From contig QPGO01000165.1 in NCBI GenBank assembly GCA_008632985.1, positions 1-64,000 of the forward strand: a stretch of 64,000 nt of DNA, read 5' to 3'. Below are positions 10,759 to 59,266 of the stretch, piece after piece; position 1 is the stretch's first letter, and each line of letters starts with the position of its first letter. The position numbers and the translations under genes were made by a program. Source of the stretch: Psammoneis japonica. Lineage: Eukaryota. The notes under the pieces were generated by a model, which was not told the DNA's origin, ran no database searches, and was given only the letters and a program-made list of their open reading frames with translations.

Positions 10759-10921
10759 TTAGAAGAGTTCGGAGGTTCGAGTTCGAGCCGACGAGCAACG
10801 GTGGAGATAGATTGGAAATGAGGAGATGAGTGAGGACCGACGGCGTTTTATCCATTGACTCTATCCAGTGTACTCATCTCTTGTCGATACTAAAGCCATA
10901 AGTTACACTGGTTATACAAAA

Positions 10922-15548: not shown

Positions 15549-16348
15549 TTATAGGGAATACGCATATGCAGACCCTGATGAATCACCGTTGATGCCACCG
15601 AATTGGGCCCCTACTCCAAGAACGGTTCCATTTGCGGACAAGGATACGGACCCTCCAAATTCATCATTTTCAGCCTCACCATTCAATGGATCGCCCACTT
15701 GACTCCATTCTTGCATTTCAGGATGGTATTGAAAGACTACAACTTGACCTGCGTCAACGAGTCCATTGACATCATGCCAAACACTTCCAACAGCCAACGC
15801 ATTTGCGCTTCCACTCAACGACACGGACCAACCAAAGACATCACCCGATTGTTGTGTGCGAAGGATTTGACCACGTGTTGTCTACAAGGACGTGGAATTA
15901 TCGTACTGATAGACCACGGCATACCCATCATTTCTATTTGCACCTCCTGCCACAATGTGACCCGTGTCATCAAGAGAAACAGACCATCCAAACTTGTCAA
16001 GAGCGCCAAGGCCGTAGATTGGATCCCCCATTGATTGCCAAGAGGACAATGCTGAATTGAATTGGTAAAGTTGAACCTGATTGGCATTATCGCCGCCCAT
16101 TGCAACAACGGTTCCCGAGCCACTAACGCCAACAGAAAAACCATGCTGAGCATCTTCTTCTACGCCAAGAATTGTTTCTCCAAGTTGGTTCCAGACAGAT
16201 GATCCGGCATTGTACTGAAACACTTGAACTGCTCCCGATCCCCTTCCATTGATCGTGTCGGCCCATCGTACCCCAATCGCAACAACGTCCCCTCCATTCG
16301 ACAACGAGACGGAACAACCAAACAACTCACCGCCACCTTGGCCGAGAA
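15549..16348 (-). pseudogene. 3' fragment of the FG-GAP-like beta-propeller gene, truncated at the duplication junction
   Basis: Repeats FGxSVSLS.xG..VA.G; near-identical to 36011-36810; in-frame TAG at 15882-84. Confidence 0.8.
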
Positions 16349-19300
16349 GGAGTCTCTCACAGCCATCCAAAGACAACTGGTCACTTGCGCTGTCACACAG
16401 ATGGCTCCATGGTCTCTGCACAGGTGTGTTGGCTGGGCCAAAAAAGCCCCCAGTCATGTCAGAAAGGAAAGGGGCCACATTGACACAAGAAAAGGCCTTT
16501 GCTCCCCAACCAAGGGGTTGTTGTTGGCTCTCCTGGGACACAATGGAATCACCCAAGGCCAGCAAAAGACGTCCGGGCACTTGCGCTGTCACACAGAAAG
16601 CTCCCTTGCCTCTGCAGGTGGGGTGGCTGGGCCACCACAGCAAGCCGATCCCATCAGAAAGAAAAGGGGCTGCACTGGCCCAAGACAAGGCTTTTCCTTT
16701 CCAACCATCATTGCAACCGCCTCTTCCTGGACCCAACAGAGTCTCTTGTGCCTGCCCCCAGACAACTGAGTGCTTGCACTGTCACACAGATTGCTCCCTT
16801 GTCTTTTTTGCAGGTTGAGCCACCAAAAGCCATCCCAAGACAACAGAGTGCTTGCACTGTCACACAGATGGTTCCCTTGTCTTTGCAGGTTGGCTGGTGC
16901 CTCCACACCTTGTGCAGCTGGGCATCTTCTTGTGTGGAGGACATTCATGCAAGGGGCTGGGCCATTGTCTTCATTTGCGGTGATGGCAAGAGGGAAAAGA
17001 TGAGACATTCTTCCCAGTCTCTGTCATCTGGCAATGGCTTTCCAAGCAGTGGCACCATTGCTTGCTTTGTGAGATGCAAAGACCATGCCTTGGCAAGTTT
17101 AAATCTGAGCAACTCTTCCTGCTGTTCCCAGTGCTTCTCTTCCTGCAGCGCTGGGTGGGGGTGTGTGCTTGCCAAAGTCATTGTCAGGGTTCAGGCCAAA
17201 ATGGAGAAAGAAGAGCACTGGGAGATGCCCTTGAAAATGTCTTGAGAGTTAAGAAAATGTTGAACAAGAAGAAGCAGGATGATGTGGGCTGGTCAGTCAA
17301 TGCAGGACTCTTGCCACTGTGGTGAATCCCAAAATGTCCATTGCCGCCATCTGTAAAGAACAGTCAGGCTGACATCACATGCAGCACTGCGTGTGCATTG
17401 AGATGTCACTTGATCCATTTCAGCTGCTGTCCTCCTTTCACTCCATGCAGCAAGCACCTGTTGGCTGTCTCTAGAGCAGAGAGCAGTGATTTGGCAGAGG
17501 CTGCATGACACCCAACTGCTGCAGTGCTCAGCAGAAATCCAACAGCAAATGTGGACAAGAATGATGGACGGCAATTGCAAACCAGGTCCTGCACAGGACA
17601 GTTGAGCACAAAAAAGTGAGAAGATGTGGCATCACACTTCATCACATGGAAGTTGCACAAGTGCTTTTTTCATCATGGTCTTTTCCAAGATGGATCTTGG
17701 TCTCCAAACTCATGCTCTGCTCCTTCTCGTCTTTGTCACCAACATCTCCATGTTGCCACATTCCAGAACAAGATTTGCGAGCTGTTTCCTGGGCAACCTT
17801 CAATTCCACAGACATGCTTGCCAGGCCACTGCCTTCCAAAATTTCAATGCCAGACAGTCTGCGTTGGTTTGCTTGACTGCATGAGCAACAAGTCCAGCAG
17901 CCACAAGTTGTTCATCAATGGCCCGACGCACAGCTGAGCAATCATTGAGCAACAAACAACAACGGAAGAGATGGCCACACAAACTTGCTTTGAAAAACAA
18001 ACAAACAAAAGCTTGCCTGCATCCATTGCTTTCATGCCCCCCATCCACATTTCAAATCCAACAATGTCCATTCTTGCAGTGTCAGCACTGACACCTGAGT
18101 CTGAGCGACAGGCATTGCTGCGACAGTGTGCTGCCACACCATCAATGGTGCTGCACTCTCTGTCAATTCTGATGCAACAAAAGAGCACAGCCAGAAACAT
18201 GAGTCAGTGTGGAACAATGCCAAGACATTGCATGAAATGTGTTGAGCGACAAATGACAACAACGCAAGAGACAGCAATGCAACTTGCTTTGGTGCCAAAA
18301 CAAAAGCCTTGCTTGCATCTCTTTTGCCCCCCTTCGGTGATTCAAAGCATGATTTGTTACAGCTGCAATGTCTCAAACAGCAGAGTGACAGCAATGCTTT
18401 GAATGCAGTCAAATTGCTGCAGCAGAAGAAGCGGGAACAACAGGAAGCACATCATCAAAATCAAAAATGCAATTGGGTGATGGAAGACATCACCTGCCAT
18501 GGTGATTCTGTTGCAACAGTGAAGACAATCATCACATCATTGCAGCTGTTGGCGTTGATGTGGTGTGTGTGGTCTGGTGTGAAAAAATGTGCGTCTGCCA
18601 ACTGCAAATTGGGCCACACAGGTGTCAACAACTTGAAAAAGAAAAAAATGGTTAAATTGTTTGTGGCTCAATGTTTGCAAAAATGCACAATTAACAACTG
18701 TGTAAATTGAAGATCAGTGGACAGAGTTAGAGCCTGCCTGTGCAACAATTTTGTTTGTCAACAAGCTTCATTCTTGACAAGCACCAAAACATGTTGCAGA
18801 CAAAGGTTGTGGCATGCAAGCAAATTTCTGAGGTGCCATCTTATGTGCAAGCAACTGCAGCAGACAGTCATGCAATTGAGTCCAACGCATTGTTGTGCAT
18901 CGTTGCTGAGGTTTGAGAGGGGTTGTGAGGGGGGGTCAGCCACTGTTTGACAAGAGTGTGCAAAGCTGCATCTTGTTCTCCAGGAAATGACCCATGTGCG
19001 CACTGCAAGTGAGAACTTGACAAGCTCAGAGCTGGGCCACTGTGTGTGTCAACCCACCATCAGGGGGTGTTTCAAAGTCACTGCATTGCACCGTGAGGTC
19101 AAAACATTGAGAAACATTTTGACTTGCCGGGGAGCACCCAACAAGCACACAGCCATCAAGAAGAGTTTTGATGACATTGACAGGAGGGTGAAGCTTGCAA
19201 AAGAAAAACAAGGGACAGGAGGAGACAAGATCCATCATGCCCCCCTCCAGAGTCAAATGACAAGCATGCCTCCCAGATTTTTGGAGAGACATTTGGGAGC

Positions 19301-22300
19301 ACATGAGGTTTTTTTTAGAAAGTGGCCTCAAGCAAAACATGGGCTTTGACCAGCAAGAAGAAGTTGCTGTTGTGTGGAGGTTGTCCAAGAACAAAACAAG
19401 CTTGTCCCACGTTTGAGCTGCTGCTGTGTTGCCATTTTGTGCACAGTTTTTTGTTCTGAAACATTTGATGAGAACACACAAAAAACCACATTTTCTTGTC
19501 CTCCAGAAGATGAGCCATGAGTTGCCCACAATAAAATGGTTTTGTTGTCCATTGAAAGCAAGAATTTGACAAGTTCAGCTGAGCCACCACACCTCAAAAC
19601 AGGCCGCTGTGCTCTGGATGATTGTGTTGAAACACTGAGGTGCATCTTGCTTGACCTGCTGCAGTGGCAAGTTTTGATGACATTGACAGGAGGATGAAGC
19701 TTGCAAAACAGATGGTTCATGAGTGCAAGACAAGATCCATCATCCCACTCCAGAGTCAAGTGCAAAGTTTTGGAGCACATGAAGCCTTTTGTGGAACAGG
19801 GGCTGCTCCTCCCAAAATGCGAGCTTTGACCAAGTGCTCCACGTCTGGTGTGGCAATGATCTGAGATGCGAGCCAGCATGGCACAAAATTTCCGTTGCTG
19901 CAGAAAGTCGGATTTGTCCTGTGTTGTTAATTGCCTGATGCTAAGTCTGCACGCCGGTGTGCAGACAACTGATGTTGTTCGTTAAACCATGCTGTGATCT
20001 TGCACACTCATGCCCGAGTTGATTCATGCCACACAATCTTGTCACCTGCCACGTGTCGTTGCTGCCATGTGGTTCGTCCCACTCATTTTCATTTCATTTG
20101 TTTTTACAACATGAACAATGGCACCCCCCTTTGCCGTCGGAAATGATTGTCCCATGTGCGGCAAACGTTTTCTCTCAACTGGTCTTCAACACCACCTGAG
20201 AACTTGTCTTCCCTGCAAACTGTCCTTTTCTCAAAGCCTTCGTGACGTTTCTTCCCGTCAATCCCACCCCGCCAATGGAGAACATCCCCAAACTGGAGAA
20301 ACAGATGAACAAGTGGATGTTGCCACCTCTTCTGCTCTCAGCTCTCCTCCATTCGAATTTGTCGCCGCAGGCCCCGATGCCAACAAATCTCCATCTCCGC
20401 CAGGTTACACCCGACACAATCCCCGGCCGCCGCGTTCCCATCGTGCATCTTCATCCATGCCAGAGCTGCGTGTTTCCCACAACAATTCCATTCTTCCCCA
20501 CGTTGATGATGTTTCAGAATGTCAGTTTCCCGACCCCGAAGAATTTGTTTCCGACACCGAGGCTTCTGCCATCAATGTTGCAGAATCTGGCCCCTTTTCC
20601 GCACTCGATCAAGTTGGGCACCTCTCCGCGGACGAGGACCTCGTGGTGCCCGAAGTGCACAACTGCAAAACAACATCCATGGTCCGCATGTTGAATTTGT
20701 GCCACTCCAAGGGTGCCCCAATGAGTGTGACAGATGAATTGCTGAGAACTGTGCAGGAGGAATTCTCCAGTGGTGGGTTGTCCGTCACAAGACAAATTCC
20801 CTCTTCTCGAACTTTCATGTCCAAGCTCAAGTCAATGTTGCCCAGCGTTGTGGCCCCTGTGCTGCAGCACATTCCTCTTGAGTCTGTTTCCATCGTCAAC
20901 CAATTCAAGACCAACCCGCCTCAGGATCTCTCTCCCAGCATCCCTGTGTGCGACTTTTCCTTTCAACTGCAGGATCTGTTCGACGATCCCCTTTTTGCCG
21001 ACCTTTCAAATCTTGATGTTCCTCCTGATTCACGTTGGTCTCAGGAGCTCTCCAGTGAACCCATGTTGGATGAGAATGGCAACTGGAAACTTTGTGACGA
21101 TGCCGAAATGAAGGATGGTGAAACTCACAGGAACTGTGTTTGTGGCAGCAATTTTCCCACCGTCCCCGGTTTCTTTCATGTGTTCCTTTTGCATTTCACC
21201 GACAAAACCGGGAAAGGACAGGTCTCACCTCATTCGATGGAGCCATTTGTTTTCTCTATGACTCTCATCAAGTCATGTGCCCGCCATCATTTTGAAGCAT
21301 GGCGTCCTCTTGGATTTGTTCCGAAACACACCGGTTGCAAAACAAAGAATCCCGTTTTTGGGATGAACGTCAGAAATTATCACTGAATTTTGTCTGTCAT
21401 CCTAGCGTCTGTGATTCAAGCGCAAGAATCACCTCCTGTCTGCTGAGTCCAACTTGGCGATCAGTGTTGTTGTGAGCACATTGTTGTTCACAGCGTGACA
21501 TTGTTGGGCGATGCTGTTGACGCCGCACAAGTCACCGGTCATGTTTCTGGGCGTGAGAACTCCTGCCGCATCAGTCATGCCTGTCACACTTCCTGGACCA
21601 ACAGCAATGAACAATGAACCTTTACAATGCTGCAGGCACTTTTCCCAAGAACTGATGGAGCGTTTGACTGTGGCAGCCCTTGGTCACTGCGATGGATTGT
21701 GCGAAGTTGTGGAGCAATTGCACGAATCGTGTGAAAGAGAGAGAGAGAAGAAGCGGGTGTAGATGAGGAAGACAGAAGGGTGAGAGCAAGGCTGAGCGAT
21801 GAGTGAGAGAGAAGAGATGAGCCCAAATGCCTGCACAGCATGTGATCAAACTAGTGCACACCAAAATCATGGAAATTTTTAACAAACCAGTGAGTTGAGG
21901 ACAATGTCAAAACAGTGTTCTGTTCGTGGTGGGCTCGCAGCAGAGCAAGCTGGGGGCAGCTAGAGAATGGTGACCCAGACGGCACAGCGAGACATTGCAT
22001 GCCAGCCAACAATGAAAAAACAAGGTTTAGGACTGCAGCCCTTTCACACAGGAAAATTGTGCCCACAAAATAAAATTGGCTGGCGATTTGAAAATTGTGG
22101 CATGCAACAGTGGGGAGTGCGATTGTTCTTCGCTCGGATCATGAAATGTGCAGTGAACGGATGATGGGCGGGAGGCTGAAAACAACAAAACATGCCATTC
22201 AAAAGGAATGTAAAATTCATCAATTGATGTTTGATGATGAGAAATTTGAAAAATTTGGCATGCAACAAAAGGGAGTTTTTAGAAAAGGGCGAACGTGCGT

Positions 22301-24126
22301 GATGGCTGGCACACACTCCAGGACTGGGTTTGGCGCAGAGGGGATGATTTCATTGACACAACACGTGAGGATGGGTGGGCAACATGTCGGTGCAAAACAA
22401 TTCATCAGGTGCGTGCATTGCGGCGTCAGTGCACAAACAGATTGGCCCTCTCACGCTGCTTGTGTGTCCTTCATGACAGTCAGCACCCATGACACAACAA
22501 ACACAGGATGCCACAATGTCCAGATTGTGGGAATGTCGGTCGTGAGCTCGGAGGTGGCAAAGAAAAAGTTCATGGATGGCCAGACAACCAATTGCGTTAC
22601 AACTGCGGTGCACCAAGGACAAAGTTCGTGATGCACGATGACATCAAGTTGGCCTTTGGGAGCAAAATGCAGAAAAAGGTTTGCAAGCACCTCAATGTGG
22701 ACGTGGGTGACTGTGCAGTTTGGTGGGAAGAGAACAAGGAAAAGGTGAGGAAAAGACTCAACAGGAGAAGAAACAACAGACAGGAGGCATTTAGAAAGAA
22801 GATGGTTGGCAAGTAAAATTCGGGAGGCGGGTTGATGAGGTGAAGCAGTGTTCTCACCAATTGTTTCTTGCTCAGAAATGGCTAAATGCGAGGGACTAGA
22901 AACAGTCAAAGACATCAAAAAGGGCAGGCGGTTGGCTCATGCTCACTTCTGGTTCTTGGAGAATTTCTGCTCAACAGCGGCGGGCATGGAATGCTGCAAA
23001 ACAGCAGACAACCAAGGTGTCAGCAACTGGCTGACAACAAGCATGGAAGCTTTTGCAAGGCTCATGTGTGACAACTGCTGCAAAATGGCCTTGTCAGTAG
23101 CAGAGGTCGAGGAGGAATTCGAAGATGACGGAGGGGCGCACCAAACGACACAACCCGTGGCCCCAAAATGCACTTTCCTGGGGAAAGGCACAAAACAAAA
23201 TCAAGGATGGAACCAGGGTGGGATCAAAAAGCACAACAAACTCTACGATGCTGTGGCGAAGGAGAGAGAACAGATTGCAGCAGAGTCGATGCACAGCACC
23301 TGCAAACAAAGAAATCGGAGAGCGCTCATGGCAAGAAAAGAAAAAAGAAAAAGAAGGACAGCATGAGCGGATGGGCTGCTCCAAAAGCTGATTGGAGCGA
23401 CAGCAAAAAGGAGGCCGCTGGAAGGAACAACGAGCAAGTGAACAAAGAGGAAGAGGAAGAGACTCCAGAAGCAGCAGCGACCGACAACAGTGCTTCGACA
23501 CAAACGGGTTCTCGACAAAGAGTGGTGAACAACAACACACAGAAGCAACACAGGGTGCAACGAGGAAACGGGTGGAACAACAGCGGTGTTCACCAGTGTG
23601 CAGCAGAAAATGACGGTGGCAGCGATGTTGACCACGAAATCCACTCAGTTCAGAAGCAGCAGCTGTGTTGAATGTGAAAAGCGTCCAAGTGTTGCACTGT
23701 AAAATGATGGGCATGTTGTCCGTGTGCTTGTTGGATTTAAAGCAAGGTTTGAAAGCAATGTGAATCGGGGGCTGTCACAAAGGCAAATTGTCACATGGTG
23801 AAAAGGGGGCCAGTGTTGCACTTGACAATGTCAGGAACATTCTCCGCATGGTTGTCACATTTAAATTTTCTGGTGTTGCATGACAAAAAAAAAACCAGAT
23901 GGAAAGCAAGATTTCTGCCACGGCATGCAAGAATTTTAAAATTAAATTTAACAAAATTCTGCCATGAAGGGCAAGAATGTCGCACGCAAGTTCGCGCGCG
24001 ATGTCAGATTGTTGCCCCACCAGACGCAATCACAAAAAAAGTGATTGTCCTGTGTTTGAGCCAGTTTGTTTCATGTGCAGGTTTTTGCTCTGAAATGTGG
24101 GAAGTGATGGACTCCCACCGCCATTG
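16349..24126 (+). repeat. Direct segmental duplicate of 1745-9519 (second, 5'-truncated copy of the Plavaka-like element, right end at 24043)
   Basis: Near-identical sequence at an offset of about 14.6 kb; junction at a GGA microhomology (1745-47, 16349-51). Confidence 0.95.
20118..21740 (+). pseudogene. Plavaka-type transposase, second copy
   Basis: Translation nearly identical to 5511-6779. Confidence 0.7.
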
Positions 24127-25008
24127 AGAAGCTTCTTTTACGTCGGTGAAAAGTTGGAAGCAATTTTCTGGACTCTCGAAAACAAGCTGCGATGCTCCTG
24201 CTGCTCCACCGCCACCACTCCCGCCACCGGGCACTGCTGCAAGTTCCCCACCACCTCCTCCTCCCGCTGAAACGAGTGCAGAACAACAAGAACAACCCAA
24301 AGACGCCATTGCGCTTGCGGCCGAGTCAGTCTCTGCTACAGCTCCAAACCCGGGCACTTGCGAAGAAGCCACGTTGGATTGCAAGCGTCTCGTGCAACTC
24401 GACACCCACGATGGCTTTCGCGTGGACATCAACAAGCAGCTCAGTCCCTTCATGGCGGTTGTGCATTCCTTTTGGCTCGGCACGTCCATGCTTCCCGACG
24501 GACGCAACCGGACCTGCACCTTTGTCATGCACGCAGCCGATGAACAGGGACTTCTCATGGCCCGTGTCGATCCCGAACGCGGCTTGGTCGATGGACGGAT
24601 CCATCGTGCGCTCTTGGGCGGGTTGGCCATGGTCAAGGTACAAGCCGGTCTAAGTGTGAGTGGTGAACACGATCAACTCTTGGCTGAACTGGACTTTGGT
24701 GGAGAAACGTGGAGGGGTGACCTCAAGTGCGGCTCCATGGGTGGGGGGCAAGTGTTTGGATGCAATTGCTTTCAGAGTGTAACAGACCGGCTCGCCATGG
24801 GAGGGGAGGGCATGCACCTTGCTGCGAATCAAAACATTCTTTCCAATTGTGCCGCCAAATGCACTGCGCCCGTCAGAACGGAGGACGGTGACGGCGGCGG
24901 GTCTAGTGCGATTTGTGCCAACTTCAACACGTCCCAGGGACTCTTGTTGCTCAATTACAAACGAGTCGTGACACCCAACCGTGTCACACTTGGAGCCGAG
25001 TTGGAGTG
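24127..25008 (+). pseudogene. TOM40: TOM40 fragment, truncated at both ends and TpA-hypermutated
   Basis: Corresponds to 10942-11823; lacks the ATG because of a deletion equivalent to 9520-10941; 7 of 8 Tyr changed to Cys/His; fused to transposon sequence at 25009. Confidence 0.9.
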
Positions 25009-28000
25009 GGTCGACACAGAGGAACAGCAGTAAAACGCAAGGGCGCTGCAGCAGCGTCTAAGGGCAAGCTTGCCCGAAAGCAAAAAGATGTGGACGCGGT
25101 CCCGGTCCCAGCGCCAAGCCCGATGAAGTCACAAAAAACACAGCATGCTGAAGCGGCTCTCGGTGCTGAAACGGCAGCAGCACAAGACAAAGCGTTGAAT
25201 CAGCCGGATGGTCAATTGATGCGTGGGTTGGGTTTTGATGTTTTTGAGTCAGAACCATTGGATGAAGGTGTTGCATTTGAACAAGACGGCGAAGGGAAAG
25301 AACTGCATGCTGAGAAACAACCAACCATCATTGCATCGTCAGCACCGGAGATTAATTTTGCCAAGAAGCATTTCTTGGAGTCTCTGCCAACTCAGTTGAA
25401 GCAATTGACAGAAGACAAGGAAGCAGCACAACTTTTGGACGAGTTGGCAAACATGGTGGCGGCGAAAATTCACTCCGCTGCCAGTGCAGACCCCAAAGTG
25501 AGTCCCGAGTCAATGTCGCATTGCTTTGAAATTGATGGAAAAGCGGGTGCGGAGTCAGCCGCACAAACTGTGCATCCAATGCAACTTCGTCACAATAGAG
25601 CTGTTTTGGATTTTGATTCTGTTGCAACAGTGCCTTTGGATGAAGAAGCCGCATTTAAATGCAAAGCAAATGGGCAAAAGCGCAGTGAAGCTGCGAAACG
25701 GCAGGCCAAGGCACGAGCCATAAAATCAATTGTGGACGCTGCACTCAACTCATCCGACAACCACAATGATCGCACTGTTGCCTTAGCGGGGGCACTTGCT
25801 CATCCAAAAATGTCAAGCATCACTGAGAATGTCAATCCAGTCACGCCGGAAACAAAAATGCTCAAAGACGCTTTCCAGCAGCAGCAACGAATGATCGAAC
25901 GAGCTAGTGTTACAAACAAATCCCGGGGTCGAACCAATGATGACAAACGTTCGTCAGTTGAGACTGTTCTAACATGCTGTGCCGATTCACCTGATAAAAT
26001 CAGAAAAGGAAACAGCTCTCTCCTGATTGAGACTCTTGGTTTGGCGAAAAGCACCGGGTGCCGAAACACAAAGAAGGCGAAAGCGAAACGTGCCGCACTC
26101 TCTTCGAATGCAAATGGTGTTTCATGGGCAAATGTCAAGCGTCGAAAGGGATTTTCTAAAGTCACACCGAAAATTCGTGAAGCACTTGTCAAATGGATTT
26201 TGGCACACCCCCAGGTTGTGCAATCGCCTGTCAAGGACGAGACTGCACCAGTGCAAAATCCTGACACAACTGGCGATGTTAAAAAAGTCCGTGTCCCAAA
26301 GTTGTTGCTCCAAGTGAGCATCCAAGAGCTCCACAATGATTTGACATCTGAGGAAGAACATGGTTTCAAGCATGCACGAGATGCTGATGGCAATGTCATC
26401 ACAAGTGACACTGCTCTACGTCATCTGCTCCCAGAGCAGATGTGCAAAATGTCGCCACGACACAAACAGATGTGCGGTTGCGAGTGCTGCATTGCAGTGC
26501 GGAGCCATCAGCAATCCCTCAACGCGTGGCGTCGTCGTCATTTACAAAAGCTGAAAGATGCGTCTCGTGATGAAACATTGCCCCAAGAGGAGAAAGAGAA
26601 ACCAGAAGTTCGTGCAACTGCACACAAGAGTGCGATGCCACCCAATGGGCAGCCACCACATTCCATGCCACGAGATGCAATTGCCGCCATTCAGTGCGAG
26701 GAAGTGGCTTCTGTGGGACACCTGCACTGGCGATGTGTCCTGGGAAAATGCCAAGATTGCCCCAAGCATGTCACTCTAGAAGAAGAAAAAGGTGCGGATG
26801 AGGCGAGTGCACCGCGGATTGACTTTCATGAATGTGAAAAGATGACCACGTGCACCATTCATGGCGTCCCACCAAACAACCCAAAGGAGTGCCAAGCATG
26901 CCAAGGGTTTGCGGCAGGAATGAAGCGGGGTGAGGTGCACAAGCGGAAGCACCTTGCCAAAAAAAACGCAACCATGGGCAAGTTTGCAAGGAATCATTGT
27001 GTCCCTTCTTTGGAAAAGCACCGATGCCATCGACCGCATGTCCGCATCCTCTCCAGGAATGGTTGCGGCGGCGAGCGTGAGCTGGCCTTTCAACGCGACA
27101 TCGGCTCTGTCAAGACAAGACGTGATTGTGCAGAACGACTCCCGGCCAAGTTCAACATGGAGATGCAGAGCGAACATTTTGGAAATGGCCGCTCACTTTC
27201 AATCGAAGGGAGCACTGTTGAAACCCATGCAGCCGAAGCAATTGCAAGTGGACAGATTGACAACGAACTGCCCCAATGAGACCGATTCCCTCTGCAGACT
27301 CACAGTCACTTTTCAGATGACTCACGCCAAGACGCATCCACTGCCCACGCCCACATGGATGAATTGTTAGATTTCCTGCTCAATCAAAAAAACGTAATGC
27401 AAATTCTTAAGATGCTGTGGGATGACACAGATGGGTGCTCAAAACAACATCGATGTGCCAAGGCATTTCTGCTGCTTACGATGTTGAGTTCCAAACATGA
27501 GATTGCTGTCGATCGAGCCATTGGTGCTCCTGAACATGGGAAAGACTTGGCAGATGCCATGAATGCGATGGACAAACGGCGCCTTGCCTCATGCATGTGC
27601 CTCATCGGAACTCCAGAGGCAAATGACAAAGATGCAAGATTGATGGCCGCGGAATCAATTGTTGACTTTGGTTTGAAGAGCCTTGCAGAGGAGTGCAAGA
27701 GGCTCTGTGAGCTGCCGACGAGAGTGCAGGGCGTCAAGGGTCACAAGAAGCATGCAAAACGAGAGGCAAATGCAAGAATGCAAGAGAGACACTGCCACGT
27801 GCAGAAGAAAGAAGACGCACCTTACACCAACATGGCCGTCAAGGCCCATTTCCCCGACGACTTGAAACACATGGAGTCCTGCAACCTTCGCACCGATTGG
27901 GAACTTGGGGTGGGTTGGATTGCGGTGCGCAGGATCCCGTGTGCCTGCGCTGGGTGCCTTGCTCAACTGGCTCTGGATTGGGTGCCAGGAGTGTCTCGAG

Positions 28001-28824
28001 ACAAGCAGCCTCGATGCAAAGGCGGAAACAAGGAGTGTGAGAGGTGGCCAATGTTTGAAGGATTGAACGATTGGCGCATCGCACCTTTGGTCCGGGTTGC
28101 CAACAAGCATGAGGCAGTAGAAGCTCTTTCTCAGCAAGAGCTTGAAGAGGCGCAGGATCATGTGCTGACAGGGATTGAAACAAGGATGGCAGAGGGGATT
28201 GCAGTTGGCAACAAAGGAGCGTTTGCGACAGAAGACGAGGAGACGAGTGGCCACCATGTTGTCGAATGGACTAGCGAAGCATGTGCACTACAGGATGACA
28301 AGGCACTCACCGATTTTGACCCTCCAGTGATGCTCAAAGCCGGCACACTTGTTGCGGATGCCACACATCTCAATCAGGTACCACGAGCCCCACTCTGGCA
28401 CACGCCATCAGCCATTTCCACCACTGTTGTTGCAAAACAGGTTGTCGCTTCACACCTTGATCTCCTTCCAATCTCTGAAGACAACCCTTTGCCACAGGGG
28501 TGCCGCAACAAGAGAGAAGCAATGGACAAAGGTGGGATGCAGGTGAAGGGCGAAAGCCACGAAGAGATCATTGAGGAACTGGCACATCGAGTTGCTCTCG
28601 ATCACGAGGAATTCGACGAAAATGAAAGCAGTGAAGATGAGGGGGGAAACGAGAGTGAGATGGAAGGTGATGATGACATTGACAACAGCAGCGACAGTTG
28701 GTTGCAGCACAATGTTTCACGAATGCAACTCACATTGGCGCGCGTCCTTGCATCACCTGCGCCCAGGTACAGAATGCAGTTCCGTTGCAGTGCTAAGAAC
28801 AAAAACAGCAGCACAGCCAATTGA
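25009..28824 (+). pseudogene. Large Cys-cluster DDD/E transposase (Sola-like), frameshifted near 27280
   Basis: Motifs CGCECC, RDCAER, QSEHFG..SIEG, WDDTDGCSKQHRC, EHGKDLADAMNA, RRIPCACAGC. The superfamily call rests on remembered motifs plus the 4-bp TSD of the related MITEs. Confidence 0.6.
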
Positions 28825-29900
28825 TGCCTTGCATCTGCCACAACATTTGCATCTGCATCAACATCCAACATCGCATCAACATCCAACGCCTTGCATGCAT
28901 CCACTTGCCTTGGGAGCAAAGAAAGGCAGAAACGTGCAGTGAGAGATGCCGCGGTGCGTGACGGGTGACAACGAAACGAACGCGTTTCTACAACACATGA
29001 GAACCCAATGATCACTCACCAGAACACTGGCCGGCCATTCCCAGCATCTGTGACTGCAGTCCCATCGATGCCCAATGTTTTACCTCTCTCTACTTTACGT
29101 CGTAATCGAGAGAGCGAAAAGGAAGAAACACGTCGCGAGAGACACACCACGGGTAAAAAACCAAAAGAACGCGCTTGCACAAAAACTAAGAACCCAACAA
29201 TCACTTGCAATCAGACTAGTTGACCGTGTCTAGACTCTGTTGCCACAGTCGTGTGCATGCCCAACGTCTTGCAACTCTACTCGAGAGAGTGAAAAGGAAG
29301 AAACACGTTGTGAAAGATGCGTGATGAACACGTGACGGGCGAAAAATCAATGGAAGGCGATGCGACAACAAATCAGAGACAACCACTTGCTTGCCAACAC
29401 ATCAATTCGACAAAAAAGCATCTGCAACTGCATCTGCATCAACATCCAATGTCTTGCAGTCTCTTCTTGTTGTGTGTGTGCACGAAACAGCAGAAAAAAG
29501 CGTCACATTGAAAGCAGCACAATTTCTTTGCTTCTTGCGCAGATTCAGAAATAGAAGCTGTTTGAAGCACTAAAACCGATGTGTCTCATGCGATGATGAT
29601 GCTAGAGACACATGAAAAGGATGGTCAACAAAAGACCAACGTAAAGACTGCTGTCATGGCCAAGAAGGCTTCGTCGCTGTTGGAGAATGCATGAGGCGAA
29701 TTTTTGCCAGGAGTGAGTCTTGGTTTTTGTTGACATCCTAAGTCACCAGGAGAACATTTCTGTCATTTTTTTATTCGTTTTGAATGCATTCATTAAGATG
29801 ATTTATTTCCTAAGATTCGGATGTCACATTTAAAAGAGCTCGTACGTAGGCTTCTACGGCCGAATGTCACACGGAGTCCCGCCTGGGGCTGGAACGCGTC
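25009..29900 (+). mobile_element. 5'-truncated Sola-like DNA transposon; probable partner of the MITEs at 38423 and 39110
   Basis: Right end gtcacacggagtcccgcctggggctggaacgcgtc (ends 29900) matches the MITE TIRs; carries a large DDD/E transposase. Confidence 0.7.
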
Positions 29901-30495
29901 TTGTCCTGTGTTTGAGCCAGTTTGTTTCATGTGCAGGTTTTTGCTCTGAAATGTGGGAAGTGATGGACTCCCATTGCCATTGTCACTTGTTTTGCGCTGC
30001 TGGCAAATTCAATGCCATCATCTCCTGCAGAGCTGTCTTCTCTTTGCACGTGTCTCTCTCTTGGAGCACAGCTGCACGAGGAATGCCAAGCCTTTAGCTT
30101 TCTTTGGTTTCTCTCATGTCTGGACCAATGGTGGTGCAATCAAGATGAGAGGAGTGTTGAAGTGATGGTGAGCATGTGGTTGGCACCTGCGCCATTTTTG
30201 CTCTCTGCCTTTGGTGTGTTGCACGCACGCCAGTGGCTGCCTGGCTGCGATGATGTGACAGCAACACTGGAGCACTTGACATGAATGGTTGCCATTGTCT
30301 GTACATTGCACTTTTGTCTTTGAAATGGATTGCTTCAGAGACCAGAAGAAGCAATGATGTGTTGTTTGTGCTTCCTCTTCCTTCAACAACCACAGGAACT
30401 CACTCGAGCGCAGAGAGCAAACACACAGACGTTCGTCGCGCAACTCGCGCGATGCCACGTCACGGCCGCTCCTGCAACACATCCATGACCCGTTA

Positions 30496-31220
30496 GACCC
30501 TGTCCAAACACTGTCACATGCATGATCATACCTGACATCACAGCACCTAAAATGAGCCTCTTCGAAAAAATCAGTGGTTGTCAGCCCTGTGCATGATGTA
30601 ATTTTAGGCCATGCCAACTTTCACGAGGATGTTTGTTCTCGCGAGAACAGACTTCCTCGGAAACATCATACCCCAACATCATGCCCCACCGACGAAACAC
30701 GAAAACAACTGACATGCATCGTTTTTTGACACGTCCAAAGTGCGTGTGGCTGTGCATCATATGAGGCAACCACATGAGACCATGCATGAGCCGCTTGTTG
30801 TCTTTGGGGGGCTTTGTGTGCCATTCTGGACTCTTCTGACACAACCATTTTGCCAAACAGTTTCTTAAAATAAATTCATGTCACACACTCTTACAGACAA
30901 CTGATTTAGCCATAAGTTGCACACAAGCATGATTTTTTTGTCAACAGGTGTCCATTGCATGGCTTGTTGTCGCCTTGTGGTTGCGTTTTCGTCGTCATGG
31001 TCATGTCGCTCTCGTCGTGTTGTTGTCGCTGGTTCATTCATGTTGCATCTGGTGTTGCTTCACGCACTGCAAGTTTGAATCATTCGATTAATGTCTGTGA
31101 GGTGCTGTCATGCGCACGAATGTGTTTGGACAGAACATTGTGGGCATGACCTGTGACGTCATCATAAAAGCCTGCGTGACGTGGGTGTGATCACACCTGT
31201 GACAGTGTTTGGACAGAGTC
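30496..31220. mobile_element. Second copy of the Harbinger-like MITE, hypermutated
   Basis: Same TIRs and TTA flanks as 10034-10758. Confidence 0.8.
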
Positions 31221-31383
31221 TTAGAAGAGTTCGGAGGTTCGAGTTCGAGCCGACGAGCAACGGTGGAGATCGATTGGAAATGAGGAGATGAGTGAGGACC
31301 GACGGCGTTTTGTCCATTGACTCTGTCCAGTGCACTCATCTCTTGTCGATGCTAAAGCCACAAGTTACACTGGTTGTACAAAA

Positions 31384-32505
31384 ATGGGAACGTCAACTTC
31401 CAAAGAAGCTTCTTTTACGTCGGTGAAAAGTTGGAAGCAATTTTCTGGACTCTCGAAAACAAGCTGCGATGCTCCTGCTGCTCCACCGCCACCACTCCCG
31501 CCACCGGGTGCTGCTGCAAGTTCCCCACCACCTCCTCCTCCCGCTGAAACGAGTGCAGAACAACAAGAACAACCCAAAGACGCCATTGCGCTTGCGGCCG
31601 AGTCAGTCTCTGCTGCAATTCCAAACCCGGGCACTTGCGAAGAAGCCACGTTGGATTGCAAGCGTCTCGTGCAACTCGACACCCACGATGGCTTTTGCGT
31701 GGACATCAACAAGCAGCTCAGTCCCTTCATGGTGGTTGTGCATTCCTTTTGGCTCGGTGCGTCCATGCTTCCCGACGGACGCAACCGGACCCATGCCTTT
31801 GTCATGCAAGCAGCCGATGAACAGGGACTTCTCATGGCCCGTGTCGATCCCGAACGCGGCTCGGTCGATGGACGGATCCATCGTGCGCTCTTGGGCGGGT
31901 TGGCCATGGTCAAGGTACAAGCCGGTCTAAGTGCGAGTGGTGAACACGATCAACTCTTGGCTGAACTGGACTTTGGTGGAGAAACGTGGAGGGGTAACCT
32001 CAAGTGCGGCTCCATGGGTGGGGGGCAAGTGTTTGGATGCAATTGCTTTCAGAGCATGACAGACCGGCTCGCCATGGGAGGGGAGGGCATGCACCTTGCT
32101 GCGAATCAAAACATTCTTTCCAATTGCACCGCCAAATGCACTGCGCCCGTCAGAACGGAGGACGGTGACGGCGGCGGGTCTAGCACGATTTGTGCCAACT
32201 TCAACACGTCCCAGGGACTCTTGTTGCTCAATTACAAACGAGTCATGACACCCAACCGTGTCACACTTGGAGCCGAGTTGGAGTGTTTGCCGTCAAGCCT
32301 AGAGTCACGGGTGGCGGTTGGAGCCAAATTCAAGCTGTCACGGTCCAAAATGGCTCTTTGTGCAGACGGAACGGGCAAGGTTCAAAGCACGTTGGAGGCA
32401 AAGCTTGGCATGGCACCGGGTTCGCCATCTTTGAACTTTTCGGCAGAACTGGATCATGCCAAGGATCAAATGAGGTTTGGATGTGGCATTGCGATTGATG
32501 GATGA
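31384..32505 (+). pseudogene. TOM40: Full-length but hypermutated TOM40 copy; ORF open, probably non-functional
   Basis: Same length as 10922-12043; 8 of 9 Tyr changed to Cys/His, several Thr>Ala, Ile>Met and Val>Ala changes; stop TAA>TGA. Confidence 0.85.
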
Positions 32506-33257
32506 TGCGACGAACCGAAAACGATGTTTGTGCTTTGGTTAAAACACGCATGATGCTGAATTGCCAGACAATCACAGTTTTGTGAGGGCAGTGCATCGCG
32601 CATTTCAATCATTAAAATCAAAATTTAAGAATTTCTTTTTTCCGCATGAGACTGTTGTTGCCACATCACATGGCAATGCAGCAACATCTTTTTGCTTGTT
32701 CGAAAATGGCTTGACAATCAATTGACAATTGAACAGCAAACAAGCTTGGCTGCATGTTGTTTTCTCTTGCGACAAGAACGGGCGTGATGCTGCTGATCAT
32801 TGTCACAGTGCAAGACTTCTTGTTGACTTGTTGGTCATCGTGCTCCTCATCCAGAGCTAAAGCCAATGAGGCCCATCGTCTTCCGACTGTGAAGTGAACT
32901 ACACGAAAGGGCCCAAAATCCGGGTCTCTCTTTGTACATTGTTTGTGCGTAAATTTGCATTCAGTCGAAATAGATGCTGCAGCAAAAATTTCTTAGAAAA
33001 AAGGAAATTTGCTTGTTCGAAGCCATTCTGTGAAATTGCTGAATCCTTCGGGGTTTGCCGGCGTGCACAGTGGCGGGCTTGCGCGTGTGTCACTTCAAAA
33101 CTCGAAAGCATTCGCTTCGACAATGAGAAAACAATGAGAAACTTGCTTTGCGACGGCATGTTTTCTTTCTCCAGTGACGGCAACAACAGAAGCTTTTTCA
33201 TTCTCTGTCACACCATGTAACCTCGTGTTTTGATTCTAATCCTTGAAAAGCTGCATC

Positions 33258-35630
33258 ATGGGTCGTCATCATCATCCTCGTTACGATCGTCGTTCTTCCT
33301 CCAGTGCAATTTCTTCTTCTTCTAGCACATCTTCCTTGTGCCACCGTCTCGATCAAGCGCTCCATCCTCCACGATGGTCCAGCACGAGCAGCAGCGGCAT
33401 TAAAAGTACAAGCAAAATTTCGTTGCGTTCCTCTCATCATGGCCGCATGCGTCGTCAACAACGTGCGTCATCCAAATGCGAGCTGAAACGAGCCATCAAG
33501 TGCGGTCAGCGTCGAGTGCTGCCGGGAAGAAGAAGGCTCAAATGTCGATTCAATGGTTCAGTGGTTGTTGTTGATGGATGCACAAAAACGGAAATTACAA
33601 GTTACAAAGAAGTGATGGACGCTGATGCACCGTTTCAAACCATTTGTCCAGAGCAACGGAAATGACATGACGATGCTCGCAAACTCAATCAGCAAGAGGC
33701 ATGTTTGAACTGTGCACAACATGAACACATGTCGTAAGTTGACCAAACCAACAGAACAAGACAACTCATGTTTGCTTTTTGTTTTCCATCTATGCAGCCA
33801 CGACAATGCAAGAGCCACTCCATTTTGCTCATTGACAAGAGCGGATCGATGCACACGCCGGACGTGCAGGGTTGCAATTCTTGTCTTGCTTCTGTGTTTT
33901 TAGCCATTGCTCAAGACTTTGTCCGTCCTCGCATTGACGCAGCCGGACGAGGGATGCAGGGTGCCATTTCGGTGATGATCATGGGCGAACGACCCTTTTT
34001 ATGGATGAATGCGTGGCCCACCGACTTTGTCACGTACAATGCCTTTGTTGCGGCATTCAAGCATGGTCATGTCCAAGCCGAGGGACATTGCTGCTGCCGA
34101 CCATCAATTGACACGGCTCAAACAATCTTTGACCGACACGACTCTGCCACGTGTCAATTGGTGTTGGGAATCTTTGCCGATGGACGACCCAGTGACTCGT
34201 CCGTGTTCAAAACCAATTGGGACCAATCGGTCCAATCCATTTCCACATCCGTTCAATCCATGGCAGCCAAGATTGGCAACCGATTGCAAATCCGAGCCAT
34301 TGGCATGGGATCTGCCAATCAATGGCAAACGCTGGATGCTGTGTGCCAAGTGGCTCGCAATTGTGGTTGTCAAGCGCAGGTGGAAACACCCAGCATGTCC
34401 TCGTCCAGTCTAGGTGCCGTGGTGAGCAGCATTGCAACGTCGCTTGCCACGTCACAAGTTGACAACCATGGTTCTTCTGATGATGGCGTCAATCGTGTCG
34501 TTCGACCGGTGCGTCGTGAAGACCGATCTCGTGTGCCGCTCTTGACGGAAGCGGTGGATGCTACGGATTTTGACATTTTCATGCAAGACAAGGTGGTTCG
34601 GGAAGAACACATTGGAGGAGATGCCTTTGTGCAAGCTGAGTTGCAACACCCGGAAGCCCGCGGTGTTGCAGTGCGCAAACAACCCTTTGATGAAGGCAGC
34701 GAACGGTTTGCCTGTCAATTCTTTGAAGTTGCACAAGACGGACGAACCGTCGTTGGAATGCCGCTGGTTGCCAAGGCGTGCAAATTTGTTCTAAACAATG
34801 ACAAGGATGAAGACGACGGTGGTGTGTCGTTGGAAGAGTACACGCACAAGTTTGTGACACGCTTTTGTCGTATTCATACCGTGGCAACCCAAATAGCAAA
34901 TGCCTTTAATGAACGGTTGGACAAGATTGCGCGTCTCGATTCGAGCGTGCCGCGTGTCGAGTTTCTACCCTGTTCGGTCTATCGTCTCGAGCACGACGAC
35001 GGAACTACGTCTGCCTATGTGGTGGAGCCTCGTCTCTTGGGAAGTTTCAAAAGTGGAATAGCAACAATGGGTGGATTCGTGAACGCAGTACAAAGCCATC
35101 ACCAGTGAAATCGATGGGCATCTCTTGTGGTGGTGGTTTGGTCCCCATCAAGGAAGAAGTAGACGAAGAAGTGTTGAACGAAGAACCCATGGACAAAGAA
35201 GAGGAAAAGTAGGAATCATCCAGTATGGATGTTGCCATGGATTCATCAGGTAACGCTGTGATTGATTTAACCACAAGCGACGACGATGACGAGGGCGAGT
35301 GCTTGTTTGTGCAGGGAGACGATGTTGCCCAGGCCTTTTCTCACTTTAGCTATTCGCTAGAACGCCAGAAACTACTCGTGTGTGACTTGCAAGGTGTCTA
35401 TGATCGTCAGGAACTTTTGCTTCGTTTCACAGATAGATCCCGTCATTCACCACGTCGTCTACAAGGAAACCGAGGGTGCAGCAAACAAACGTGGCAGCAG
35501 CAAGTACGGACGAACCGACCGTGGTAACAAGGGTATTGCTGACTTTTTCGATACGCATCCATGCAATTGCCTTTGCAATATAGTAACCAAGGGTTTTCTT
35601 CCAGTCAAGACTACGAATTTTGAAAAGTAA
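33258..35630 (+). pseudogene. Second vWA/alpha-kinase copy
   Basis: Extra stop at 33663-65, 1-bp indels near 35038 and 35440, same internal TAG. 5' part TpA-mutated, 3' part not. Confidence 0.85.
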
Positions 35631-36010
35631 GTCAGATCAGAGTTGCAAGACAAGCACAGCCAACTTGCGAGATTGACGCAAGGTCGTCCTGAGATATCAA
35701 ACCGGGGAGTCAATACTCGCATGTCTAGATGGATAAGGTGCTTACTCTCTGGAAAGACTTTATCAGCAGAAAACATCTGCGTGCGTAGCTTTCCACTGGC
35801 CATTGCAACTACCATACGATTTGAGAGGCTCCGTAGCTACAAGTATCCGATAATAGCTCTACCTCTTGTCTACTGTAATCTTTGTCAGTTATTCTGATCA
35901 CGAGATCCCGCCAAAAGAAAGGTGTGAGTAAAAATTCGACAAGGACTTTTTTTGAAAGAAACAAAGTAAAGTAAAGCAACTCATTCGATTGTGAATGCAA
36001 AAATCGATTA

Positions 36011-38202
36011 TTATAGGGAATACGCATATGCAGACCCTGATGAATCACCGTTGATGCCACCGAATTGGGCCCCTACTCCAAGAACGGTTCCATTTGCGGA
36101 CAAGGATACGGACCCTCCAAATTCATCATTTTCAGCCTCACCATTCAATGGATCGCCCACTTGACTCCATTCTTGCATTTCAGGATGGTATTGAAAGACT
36201 ACAACTTGACCTGCGTCAACGAGTCCATTGACATCATGCCAAACACTTCCAACAGCCAACGCATTTGCGCTTCCACTCAACGACACGGACCAACCAAAGA
36301 CATCACCCGATTGTTGTGTGCGAAGGATTTGACCACGTGTTGTCTACAAGGACGTGGAATTATCGTACTGATAGACCACGGCATACCCATCATTTCTATT
36401 TGCACCTCCTGCCACAATGTGACCCGTGTCATCAAGAGAAAAAGACCATCCAAACTTATCAAGAGCGCCAAGGCCGTAGATTGGATCCCCCATTGATTGC
36501 CAAGAGGATAATGCTGAATTGAATTGGTAAAGTTGAACCTGATTGGTATTATCGCCGCCCATTGCAACAACGGTTCCCGAGCCACTAACGCTAACAGAAA
36601 AACCATACTGAGCATCTTCTTCTACGCCAAGAATTGTTTCTCCAAGTTGGTTCCAGACAGATGATCCGGCATTGTACTGAAACACTTGAACTGCTCCCGA
36701 TCCCCTTCCATTGATCGTGTCGGCCCATCGTACCCCAATCGCAACAACGTCCCCTCCATTCGACAACGAGACGGAACAACCAAACAACTCACCGCCACCT
36801 TGGCCGAGAAGGACACTACCGCGCTGGACCCAACGATCCGTGTTGGCATTGTACGCATAGAAAACAACATAACCAGCTCCATCATCTACACTCATTTGAT
36901 GTGCTCCGATTGCCACAACGGTGCCGTCGGCATTTAATGATACGGAGTCACCACCGTGTGCCGCCAAATCTTGACCCATGGGCGACAAGGAGTTTGCATT
37001 GGAGTCGATTCGAAAGACAGACACACAACCGGAATTGCCGTCATTGTGTGGTGCTCCTACAGCCATGACTGTTCCGTCTCTGGAAATGGCAACAGATGTG
37101 CCAAAACCATCATTCGGAGATTTACCATGCAAGGCTTGTGCCACAGGTTCCCATGGACCATTCGGAAGCAAACCGCTTTCTGTTGGAGAAAGTGTTGGGG
37201 AGTCCGTTGTCGGGGGCTGCGTTGGGGACTTAGTCGTTGGGGATGGAGTTGGATCGAGAGTCGTTGACGTGGGAGTCGCACTGCCGGTTGCTGGAGGCAG
37301 CATGGGCGCCGAAACTGGTGTTTGTGTGGTGCCTCCAGACGAAAAAGAAGAGAAAGAAACCGCAACATTAATGGCCACAACAGCGGGCACGAGCACGACA
37401 CCTGCTCCCCATGTGATGCAGCACCTGCGACGTTTCCTCTGTGCTTCCAGCTCGAGAGCACTGGTGTTGTCTTGATTCTCTGGATGATTCGTGTCTTGGG
37501 GAGGTGCTGATGTTGTAGCAGCAACCACTTGAGCCACCTGAGCTCCCTCAACAGTTTGCCTGAGCCGAGTGTCTCTTGTTCAAGCCAATCCATCGAATCG
37601 GCATCTGCCAAATGAGCAACTGTGACTGGAGTGCTGTCATTGCGATGTGCTGGTGATGGTGGCGGAGGCATGGCACCACTTGCAGTTGGGTCGAGATCGA
37701 AAGGGACTGTGCTGATGTTGTCTGTGTCGTGTCTTGTTCGAGGAACCATCCCACCGCCTTGACCAACTGCAACTGCGCCCACCATTGACGAAATTGGCAA
37801 ATCCTCTTGCACTCCTCCCCTTTGGGCAGGCCGCATGGGCATGAAATCCGCATTGTCTGTTGGAGGAGGAACAGTCGCCTGGTGATTCTCATGGATCCTT
37901 TCCAATTCTGAAACATGATGCGCGTCAGGATGTCGACTCGCCGTGGTTTTGTTCTCTTTCCATCCTGTCCTGGAGGTGGGCACACTGTGATTGTGAGCAA
38001 GTTGATTGCCTGAACTCAAAGCTTGCTCTTGATGACGGTGAGCGTGACACTTCTCGTTTGGGCCTGCAACTGGTTTTTCCATCGTTTCTTCCTCTGCAAT
38101 CACTTCATCGGTGTTGTTGTGGTTCCTTCTTCTGCCACCACGCCTGTTGCACATGTCGTCATCACCCATTGCGGGCGGAGGCTTGTCGGGATGGCGGTTC
38201 AT
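36011..38202 (-). pseudogene. Single-pass membrane protein with a PT-rich stalk and FG-GAP-like beta-propeller repeats, disrupted
   Basis: Disordered N-terminus, RKRRR followed by a hydrophobic segment, PTPSPT repeats, multiple FGxSVS(L/I)SxxG..VAVGA repeats. Frameshift near 37540 and in-frame TAG at 36344-46. Confidence 0.75.
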
Positions 38203-59206: not shown

Positions 59207-59266
59207 CGAGCAGGGTCTAAGATGACGCTGAATACGCTACATGCAATGTGATAGTTATTTTGTTTA

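Follow-up and report, generated by a model that had tools for sequence, protein, structure and literature searches.

Position rather than duplication accompanies TpA loss in a tandemly repeated gene block of the diatom Psammoneis japonica

When two nearly identical copies of the same host genes stand on one chromosome and one of them has lost most of its TpA dinucleotides (TA) over part of its length, is it the repetition of the DNA or its position that guides the loss? This question is raised by contig QPGO01000165.1 (GenBank assembly GCA_008632985.1) of Psammoneis japonica, whose positions 1 to 64,000, diatom nuclear DNA, are the window analyzed here and give the coordinates used throughout. 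Self-comparison with BLAST revealed that a 6.9-kb block of host genes, H1 (9438-16351), matches a second block, H2 (29901-36813), at 97.3% identity with 181 mismatches and three one-base indels, and that a 7.7-kb, nearly TA-free and transposon-like block, T1 (1745-9519), matches T2 (16349-24126) at 99.16% with 60 mismatches (cf. Table 1). With the H1 letter given first, the 181 substitutions comprised 74 A/G, 61 T/C, 24 C/T, 18 G/A, and four transversions, and sorting by dinucleotide assigned about 169 of them to TA versus CA/TG or to CpG versus TpG/CpA. TA in H1 faced CA or TG in H2 (a TA hit) at 120 sites and the reverse was found at seven, while eight dinucleotides paired CA with TG and 26 were CpG versus TpG/CpA.

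The hits were distributed along the block in steps. At H1 coordinates 10300-14252, 115 of the 157 TA sites were hit in H2 and 0 of 157 in H1; from 14253 to 15980 none of 69 was hit in either copy; between 15981 and 16149, five of nine were hit in H1 and none in H2; and in the 200 bp of H1 nearest to the T2 junction (16150-16351) the count was 0/3. Fisher tests separated the left part of H2 from its clean tract (p = 5e-29), H2 from H1 at the same sites (p = 3e-50), and the H1 patch from the H1 clean tract (p = 6e-6). The last hits in H2 lie at 34672 and 34713/34714; the next TA, at 34792, is intact in a poor context (YTAR, where Y is a pyrimidine and R a purine), and that at 34839, in the context RTAY, is intact as well, as are the later ones, 63 of the 69 clean-tract sites being in susceptible contexts. 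The edge of the H2 domain is at most 125 bp wide, and up to it the hit fraction per 500 bp stayed flat at 65-83% (9/11 in the last bin), after which it was 0. The clean state of H2 then runs 137 bp past the end of the duplication at 36813, to about 36950 (segment 34751-36950 was called TA-normal by a hidden Markov model, HMM). On the left side, two H1-only hits and seven CA-versus-TG discordant dinucleotides were counted at H1 positions 9800-10299, the last of them at 10291/2, and H1 keeps TA from 10296, so that its left hit zone stops between 10292 and 10296, within an insertion resembling a miniature inverted-repeat transposable element (MITE); farther left, at 9438-9799, H1 and H2 are both almost TA-free. 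The domains change in steps, with one isolated 150-bp patch and without decay over distance. That patch (15995-16144, about 150 bp), which has unhit susceptible TA on both sides, is of the size of one nucleosome, and this may hint at the targeting unit.

Many of these features had been described in a sequence-only reading of the same DNA, in which copy 2 was said to be mutated from 29901 to about 34715 and intact from about 34840; both limits agree with the last hit at 34713/34714 and the first susceptible intact TA at 34839. The reading had also named five sites of opposite polarity, and these were recovered column by column (15996 G/A, 16047 C/T, 16085 C/T, 16130 C/T, and 16145 G/A), H1 having CA/TG and H2 having TA; hits are reciprocal between the copies in this sense, and one of the five could be polarized by homologues (S180G, see below). 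Host genes are indeed hit beside TA-free blocks, and the inverted repeats of the MITE in H1 (10033-10070 and 10722-10759) differ as described, the left one having TG/CA where the right one keeps TA. Copy 1 is mutated beside T1, as stated, the last change lying at 10291/2. The proposal that mutagenesis spreads from the transposon blocks and depends on the distance to them did not hold, since the hit fraction is flat to the edge and then zero and the part of H1 nearest to the junction is unhit.

The direction of change was established with outgroups. Three window versions of Tom40, including an internal fragment named M3, were aligned with 60 diatom homologues. At ten tyrosine codons H1 encodes Y, which is also found in 39 to 60 of 58-60 homologues (at least 53/60 at nine of the ten), and at these same codons H2 and M3 encode C or H; in addition, the H1 residues R105, T126, and E315, which all homologues share, have changed in H2. 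In the alpha-kinase gene, where Y323C at 14251/2 is the last hit before the edge, 16 differing positions were compared with 22 homologues, and the H1 residues matched 156 times and those of H2 13 times. In an 882-bp piece present three times in the window, seven dinucleotides are TA in H1 and differ between the other two copies, one having CA and the other TG; starting from TA this state requires two changes, and every other starting point requires more. As for the H1 patch, residue 180 of the FG-GAP protein is S in 52/60 homologues and in H2 and G in H1; the remaining four reversed sites were uninformative by homologues. The comparisons thus indicate that TA is ancestral and CA/TG derived, i.e., that TA was destroyed, not created, which is the polarity given by the sequence-only reading. 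Since the diatom homologues of Tom40 and alpha-kinase have the ancestral TA in these tyrosine codons, C>T mutation of the kind known from repeat-induced point mutation (RIP) is excluded.

The two contexts in which the genes stand can be traced to a tandem duplication. The trinucleotide GGA at 16349-16351 is common to the end of H1, the start of T, and the continuation of H2; an array of repeats of about 196 bp begins at 1718, upstream of the T1 limit, and the breakpoint at 1745 falls within it; and T2 is followed by the start of H, not by the remainder of the FG-GAP gene. From these three observations it follows that 1745-16348 was tandemly duplicated, and the units 1745-16348 and 16349-36813 arose in this way with 3 bp of microhomology (GGA), the offset between T1 and T2 being 14604-14607. 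A separate transposition of T2 into the FG-GAP gene is ruled out by the same observations, and position 16349, previously taken for a transposon junction, is the tandem-duplication junction and lies within a repeat array whose start is upstream of 1745. Transversions between T1 and T2 amount to about 0.07% (5 in 7692 bp), from which we conclude that the duplication is recent and that hypermutation proceeds quickly. An indirect sign of a high rate is that H2 gathered 115 hits over 3957 bp against a transversion level of about 0.07% between the copies. The second unit also contains a 5.77-kb insertion (24127-29900) between two copies of an 82-bp direct repeat, consisting of the 882-bp internal Tom40 fragment, M3, and 4.9 kb of TA-poor DNA of unknown kind, X. 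The length of the flanking repeat exceeds that of a target-site duplication, and the arrangement looks like a template-switch rearrangement.

The insertion provides a third copy of Tom40 sequence by which position and homology can be told apart. The 882-bp piece occurs at 10942-11823 in H1, at 24127-25008 as M3, and at 31404-32285 in H2, with at least 97% identity, and its TA sites were hit at 0/25 in H1, 18/25 in M3, and 19/25 in H2. Seventeen of the 25 sites are hit in M3 as well as in H2, ten times with the same product and seven times with different ones, and at symmetric RTAY sites their products were discordant in 6/10 cases, as expected of independent hits. The discordant products imply that M3 was still clean when it was copied and that the hits came afterwards. 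A second pair of repeats, about 330 bp long and about 76-81% alike, consists of one member at 49216-49570, at the edge of TA-normal DNA, which kept its TA, and an inverted one at 63700-64000 in a TA-poor block, which has TG or CA at 17 of 23 aligned TA sites (polarity being assigned here by rule and not by outgroup). An unhit H1, an 882-bp piece hit in two of its three copies, and a repeat pair split by domain argue for position, not duplication, as the factor that decides which DNA is hit. Repetition is insufficient for hits, as had been claimed from the letters. Which copy stayed clean was presumably decided by selection for one working Tom40.

With H1 taken as the ancestor, the hits showed a marked context: 48/53 RTAY sites and 38/49 YTAY sites (mostly to TG) were changed, as were about 22/31 RTAR sites (mostly to CA) and 8/26 YTAR sites. 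Counted per strand, TA had changed before C in 51/101 cases, before T in 44/85, before A in 14/84, and before G in 6/48. The motif is T-A-pyrimidine with A->G or, equally, purine-T-A with T->C on the other strand. The same preference is imprinted on the window at large, duplicates left out, where RTAY occurs at 0.19 per kb in TA-poor blocks versus 13.4 per kb in normal DNA and YTAR at 2.7 versus 8.6 per kb, a threefold depletion. No strand-coordinated clustering of hits was detected (65 runs versus 57.8 expected, z = +1.4); the products alternate without strand runs, and the hits are therefore independent events and not the outcome of one processive pass. A processive single-strand mechanism, which was considered as a candidate, is left without support by these run counts.

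Two-state HMM segmentation placed 45150 of the 64000 bp in TA-poor segments, with an observed/expected ratio (o/e) for TA of 0.07-0.17 compared with 0.48-0.99 in TA-normal ones; edges between the two kinds of segment include those at 36.95, 38.4, 39.95, 44.35, 49.85, 57.95, and 60.95 kb. The o/e of CA+TG was 1.5-1.7 in TA-poor segments and 1.5-2.0 in the TA-free blocks, while that of CpG was 0.37-0.85 in TA-poor segments. CpG dinucleotides were lost since the duplication in the same places as TA: 20/204 in T1, 15/204 in T2, and 24/275 in H2 up to the edge, that is, 7-10% in all three, and none elsewhere (0/239 in H1 at 10300-14252 and 0/114 in either copy right of the edge; p = 3e-4 and 1e-5). 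This matching loss implies that the left part of H2 has behaved like the transposon-like blocks approximately since the duplication. CpG decay is the best available sign of the nature of the domains, and we infer from it a methylated, silent chromatin state. Within TA-poor DNA, sub-blocks with a CpG o/e of 0.1-0.2 were also seen (1-5000, 16500-19500, 40000-41000, 50000-50500, and 56500-57500), the rest having 0.5-0.8, so that domains of CpG decay, being nested in TA-poor ones, do not coincide with them. Nearly all TA is gone from about 70% of the window, where TAA/TAG stops and tyrosine codons are erased.

These findings led us to an explanation that we regard as probable, though well short of certain: TpA-specific A:T>G:C hypermutation that works in cis-delimited, silent, transposon-like domains and is not guided by repeats. 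In such domains, which are probably CpG-methylated, TA would be converted to TG or CA, the edited strand reading T-A-pyrimidine. The young tandem duplication of 1745-16348 would have placed the same host genes in two contexts, and the 5.8-kb insertion into the second unit would have followed it. In unit 2, a silent domain would take in T2, the insertion, the Tom40 copy, and the 5' half of the kinase copy and stop abruptly at 34714-34839; in unit 1, the same genes would lie outside such a domain, except for the first 0.85 kb beside T1 and the nucleosome-sized patch near the T2 junction. The editing itself may be enzyme-driven, either by deamination of adenine on DNA or by modification of the paired thymine.

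Several points weigh against this explanation. A recombination breakpoint would be no sharper than this edge, and the 1727-bp tract without substitution is likewise what gene conversion might leave; the background is too low to separate the histories, about four ordinary differences in 3957 bp translating into about 1.7 expected in the tract. There is no gradient away from the TA-free blocks, the 200 bp of H1 nearest to T2 being unhit (0/3), and spreading as such is not shown by a pattern made of steps. The reads are known as de Bruijn contigs from one sample, and contigs built from k-mers can switch between copies and cannot phase them. The putative chromatin cause is read from co-located CpG decay. 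Finally, the leads that suggest a transposon nature of T and X are weak: Pfam searches on the open reading frames (ORFs) of the TA-poor blocks, T1 and X included, gave nothing above cut-off. A tblastx comparison between TA-poor blocks found no shared proteins. The feature neighbors of the ORF at 5508-6776 in T1 are clusters in which 16% of the members carry Plavaka, which is a lead only, and those of X are unnamed eukaryotic clusters exclusively. The name Plavaka, which the sequence-only reading had given to the T block, thus stands on feature similarity, and the Pfam match to this family, itself below the cut-off (E = 0.024), belongs to an ORF in a different block (52620-53978).

Gene conversion or recombination between the tandem copies is the first alternative to be weighed. 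According to it, hits that once reached farther to the right in H2 were overwritten by 1.7 kb or more of H1 sequence, 34714 marks the end of the conversion, and the five H1 hits came later. The copies are in tandem and 20 kb apart, the step is at most 125 bp wide, and 14253-15979 is free of substitutions, with two 1-bp homopolymer indels as the only differences, one of which (35036) is unsupported by contigs. Yet to the right of this tract the copies have diverged by the five H1 hits and one transversion alone, and H2 is also clean at 36814-36950, where H1 cannot act as donor; the latter means that a domain edge in or at the duplicated span is needed under any history. Moreover, the H1 edge at 10292/10296 is equally abrupt, and H2 is hit to its left and right, a pattern that conversion leaves unexplained; nor is it significant that the tract lacks background differences (about 1.7 expected, 0 observed). 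We therefore consider conversion unlikely as the whole explanation, although it could have set the exact position of the edge.

An artefact of assembly, i.e., a collapsed or polished copy or a haplotype switch, with H2 in truth hit, or clean, over its full length, appears improbable. The sequencing data comprised three runs of one sample from one study in the form of Logan contigs, and one run contains 72% of the sampled words of 29901-37400. They do reveal a third version of the block, more divergent and with a depth near that of a single copy, in which the MITE site is empty (depth 29) and the kinase gene has a variant at 35077-35317 with 14 other letters, six gaps, and 3-bp indels (depth 33). 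Because of this version the duplication may sit on one haplotype only, i.e., be hemizygous. Small assembly errors exist too, as the H2 deletion at 35036 is absent from the contigs there, which have T, and both 1-bp indels of the clean tract may be such errors. On the other hand, contigs identical to the clean tract have a word depth of 64-74, compared with 33 in the single-copy flank, as two identical copies would, depth being a poor measure of copy number. Contigs with A>G or T>C relative to H2 were found at only 45 places, about 29 of which stem from CpG (24) and the H1 patch (5); a hit version of the clean tract would add about 45 and thus left no sign of itself. A divergence of 3% is, furthermore, easily resolved by reads. 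The contig at 34665-34936 crosses the edge with one other letter but carries no phasing information.

Very improbable, in turn, is uniform or homology-based targeting with the pattern produced by purifying selection alone, acting on the only working copies of Tom40 and the kinase gene. Tom40 is expected to be essential, and the clean copy of each gene is the whole one (Tom40 and kinase in H1, FG-GAP in H2). However, H1 keeps every TA at 10300-14252 including the intergenic ones (0/157), and the 3' half of the kinase copy in H2 is clean too, where no protection would be expected for a gene that was damaged already; selection can pick the silenced copy but cannot make a step of at most 125 bp. 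The reverse polarity, namely RIP-like C>T at CpA/TpG acting on H1 10296-14252 and on H2 36458-36607, would explain why TA versus CA/TG looks like the classical dinucleotide signature of RIP and why H1 is lower in G+C in places (0.417 at 12001-13000 compared with 0.484 at 32001-33000 in H2), but it is refuted by the polarization of Tom40 and kinase, with H1 residues ancestral at nearly every differing codon, and also by the seven TA/CA/TG dinucleotides, the CA+TG excess (o/e 1.5-2.0) of the TA-free blocks, and a 394-codon Tom40 frame of H1 in which no stop has arisen, so that practically no weight is left to it.

The explanation by TpA-specific editing of silent domains has a close counterpart in the chlorarachniophyte Bigelowiella natans, in which the de novo mutations of mutation-accumulation lines reported in 2026 were only TpA>TpG/CpA, were limited to two delimited, virus-derived regions, of which one is present in a single copy and is transcriptionally silent, and arose at an ongoing rate about 1000-fold above background (bioRxiv 10.64898/2026.01.13.699255). 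According to the main text of the same report, TpA-poor, CpA+TpG-rich clusters of that genome are enriched for transposon domains and also hold virus domains, and its authors propose an ADAT2-like adenine deaminase, the candidates being ADAR, ADAT2/3, and TadA (10.64898/2026.01.13.699255). In its signature the window matches this kind of hypermutation, and it would be a diatom instance of it. The change is the same and regions are delimited in both, the region described for B. natans being not repeat-induced; in the window, 127 of the 181 substitutions are single TA-versus-CA/TG sites, to which eight CA-versus-TG dinucleotides are added, with the direction given by homologues, and TA-poor segments lie beside TA-normal ones with a step at 34714-34839. 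There are differences as well. Diatoms belong to the Stramenopiles and chlorarachniophytes to the Rhizaria; the targets here are transposon-like blocks and adjacent duplicated host genes, as against integrated viral regions in that account; and the depletion is deeper here, with a TA o/e of 0.07-0.17 over 45 of 64 kb compared with a Rho of 0.45 given there for a region derived from a nucleocytoplasmic large DNA virus (NCLDV). The TAY context, edges of at most 125 bp, and parallel CpG decay were found here and do not appear in the main text on B. natans, which does not speak of diatoms either and whose supplements may hold data on context and boundaries. Hits were seen to arise de novo in the B. 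natans lines, whereas those in the window are known from sequence alone. Full-text searches of the literature for TpA hypermutation or TpA-free transposons in diatoms returned no such report.

RIP of Neurospora and other fungi resembles the process in the window in that mobile or duplicated DNA is irreversibly inactivated by transitions at one dinucleotide, with collateral damage to host genes. RIP changes C to T mainly at CpA, creates TA, needs duplication, and mutates both partners over their shared span. In the window the chemistry is the mirror image: TA is destroyed, one partner is untouched (H1 0/157 against H2 115/157), the edge lies within the shared span, and both copies are clean at 14253-15980. 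Methylated CpG decays by deamination of 5-methylcytosine in silenced transposons, and this process was found in the same domains here; it is a companion and not the main process, as it covers only about 26 of the 181 H1/H2 differences and cannot give A:T>G:C at TpA. A-to-I deaminases are alike in converting A to G with T (U) 5' of the edited A; their tRNA substrate has U33-A34, and TadA-derived editors favor pyrimidine-A-C. They act mainly on RNA, however, and the data from the window fit equally well a modification of T in R-T-A on the other strand.

The value of the locus lies in its being a natural controlled experiment, in which two copies of one sequence, equal in age and located on the same chromosome, differ in that one is saturated with hits and the other untouched, the change of state taking place within 125 bp. 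It separates position from homology as the guide, which is the central open question for TpA hypermutation in B. natans, and it gives coordinates at which boundaries of methylation, histone marks, and expression may be sought, together with a TAY motif that any candidate enzyme must explain. We tentatively extend the explanation, in a form that may well prove too broad, to diatoms in general: these would possess a chromatin-coupled editing activity that irreversibly erases T-A-pyrimidine from any DNA entering a silent, CpG-methylated compartment, is saturating and guided by position with edges on the scale of nucleosomes, and is the same as the Bigelowiella system and hence old within the Stramenopiles-Alveolata-Rhizaria (SAR) group. 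If this is true, it would be a major and so far unrecognized shaper of diatom base composition, of the pseudogenization of duplicate genes, and of spurious long ORFs. TA-free blocks lose TAA/TAG stops and tyrosine codons, so that gene finders will report false long ORFs in them and homology searches will miss transposases. Many long ORFs without family matches were seen in TA-poor DNA, e.g., one of 790 codons at 24907-27276.

Table 1 Features of the duplicated region in the window (coordinates are window positions; empty strand cells, no strand given)
Feature	Position	Strand	Remarks
T1, first 7.7-kb TA-free transposon-like block	1745..9437		TA o/e 0.00-0.22; left limit is the duplication breakpoint, not an element end
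H1, host-gene block copy 1	9438..16351		MITE, Tom40, small ORF, vWA/alpha-kinase, 3' part of FG-GAP; essentially unhit at 10296-15980
H1 left zone, hit in both copies	9438..10292		H1 hit domain stops within the MITE
MITE-like insertion, H1	10033..10759 (H2 equivalent 30495-31221)		38-nt inverted repeats, 87% complementary
Tom40 gene, intact in H1	10922..12043	+	Pfam Porin_3, E = 1.7e-25; H2 copy at 31384-32505
vWA + alpha-kinase gene, H1 copy	13285..15435	+	Pfam Alpha_kinase, VWA_2; H2 copy hit in its 5' half only
H1-only hit patch, 150 bp	15995..16145		5/9 TA hit; 204-354 bp from the duplication junction
Tandem-duplication junction	16349..16351		GGA microhomology
T2, second TA-free block copy	16349..24044		Self-comparison with T1
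82-bp start of H, repeated at 29901-29982	24045..24126		Direct repeat flanking the insertion; three-way comparison
M3, internal Tom40 fragment copy, 882 bp	24127..25008	+	18/25 TA hit, independently of H2
X, inserted DNA of unknown kind	25009..29900		TA-poor to about 29050
H2 hit domain	29901..34714		Near saturation in susceptible contexts; CpG decay at the rate of the transposon blocks
H2 hit-domain edge, inside the alpha-kinase coding region	34715..34839		Last hit 34713/4; first intact susceptible TA 34839
H2 clean tract	34715..36950		Equal to H1 to 36441 except two 1-bp indels; 0/69 TA and 0/114 CpG lost
FG-GAP repeat gene	36347..37579	-	Pfam FG-GAP_2, E = 9.4e-16; whole only in H2, cut by the junction in H1

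The closest named homologues of the Tom40, kinase, and FG-GAP genes are diatom proteins (Attheya, Chaetoceros, Skeletonema, Fistulifera, and Seminavis), and diatom TOM40 homologues are up to 73% identical to Tom40 of the window. The limits given for the MITE are approximate; a contig joint 30479->31221 (depth 29) skips 741 bp, which suggests an element of this length, and the word depth of the element, 640-780, points to many copies. The 5' 630 bp of the FG-GAP gene (36951-37579) lie in the next TA-poor block, and its frame has no Met until well inside, so the 5' end may be damaged; a check of conserved tyrosines in this 5' half for hits found one position in the TA-poor part, where H2 has F, and was uninformative. 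Elsewhere in the window, a PEP carboxylase gene at 45297-47946 (Pfam PEPcase, E = 1e-198) is wholly TA-normal and stands 1 kb from the TA-poor edge at 44350, and at 59000-59214 a 70-bp unit is repeated three times in tandem, with copies 91-95% alike, in TA-normal DNA.

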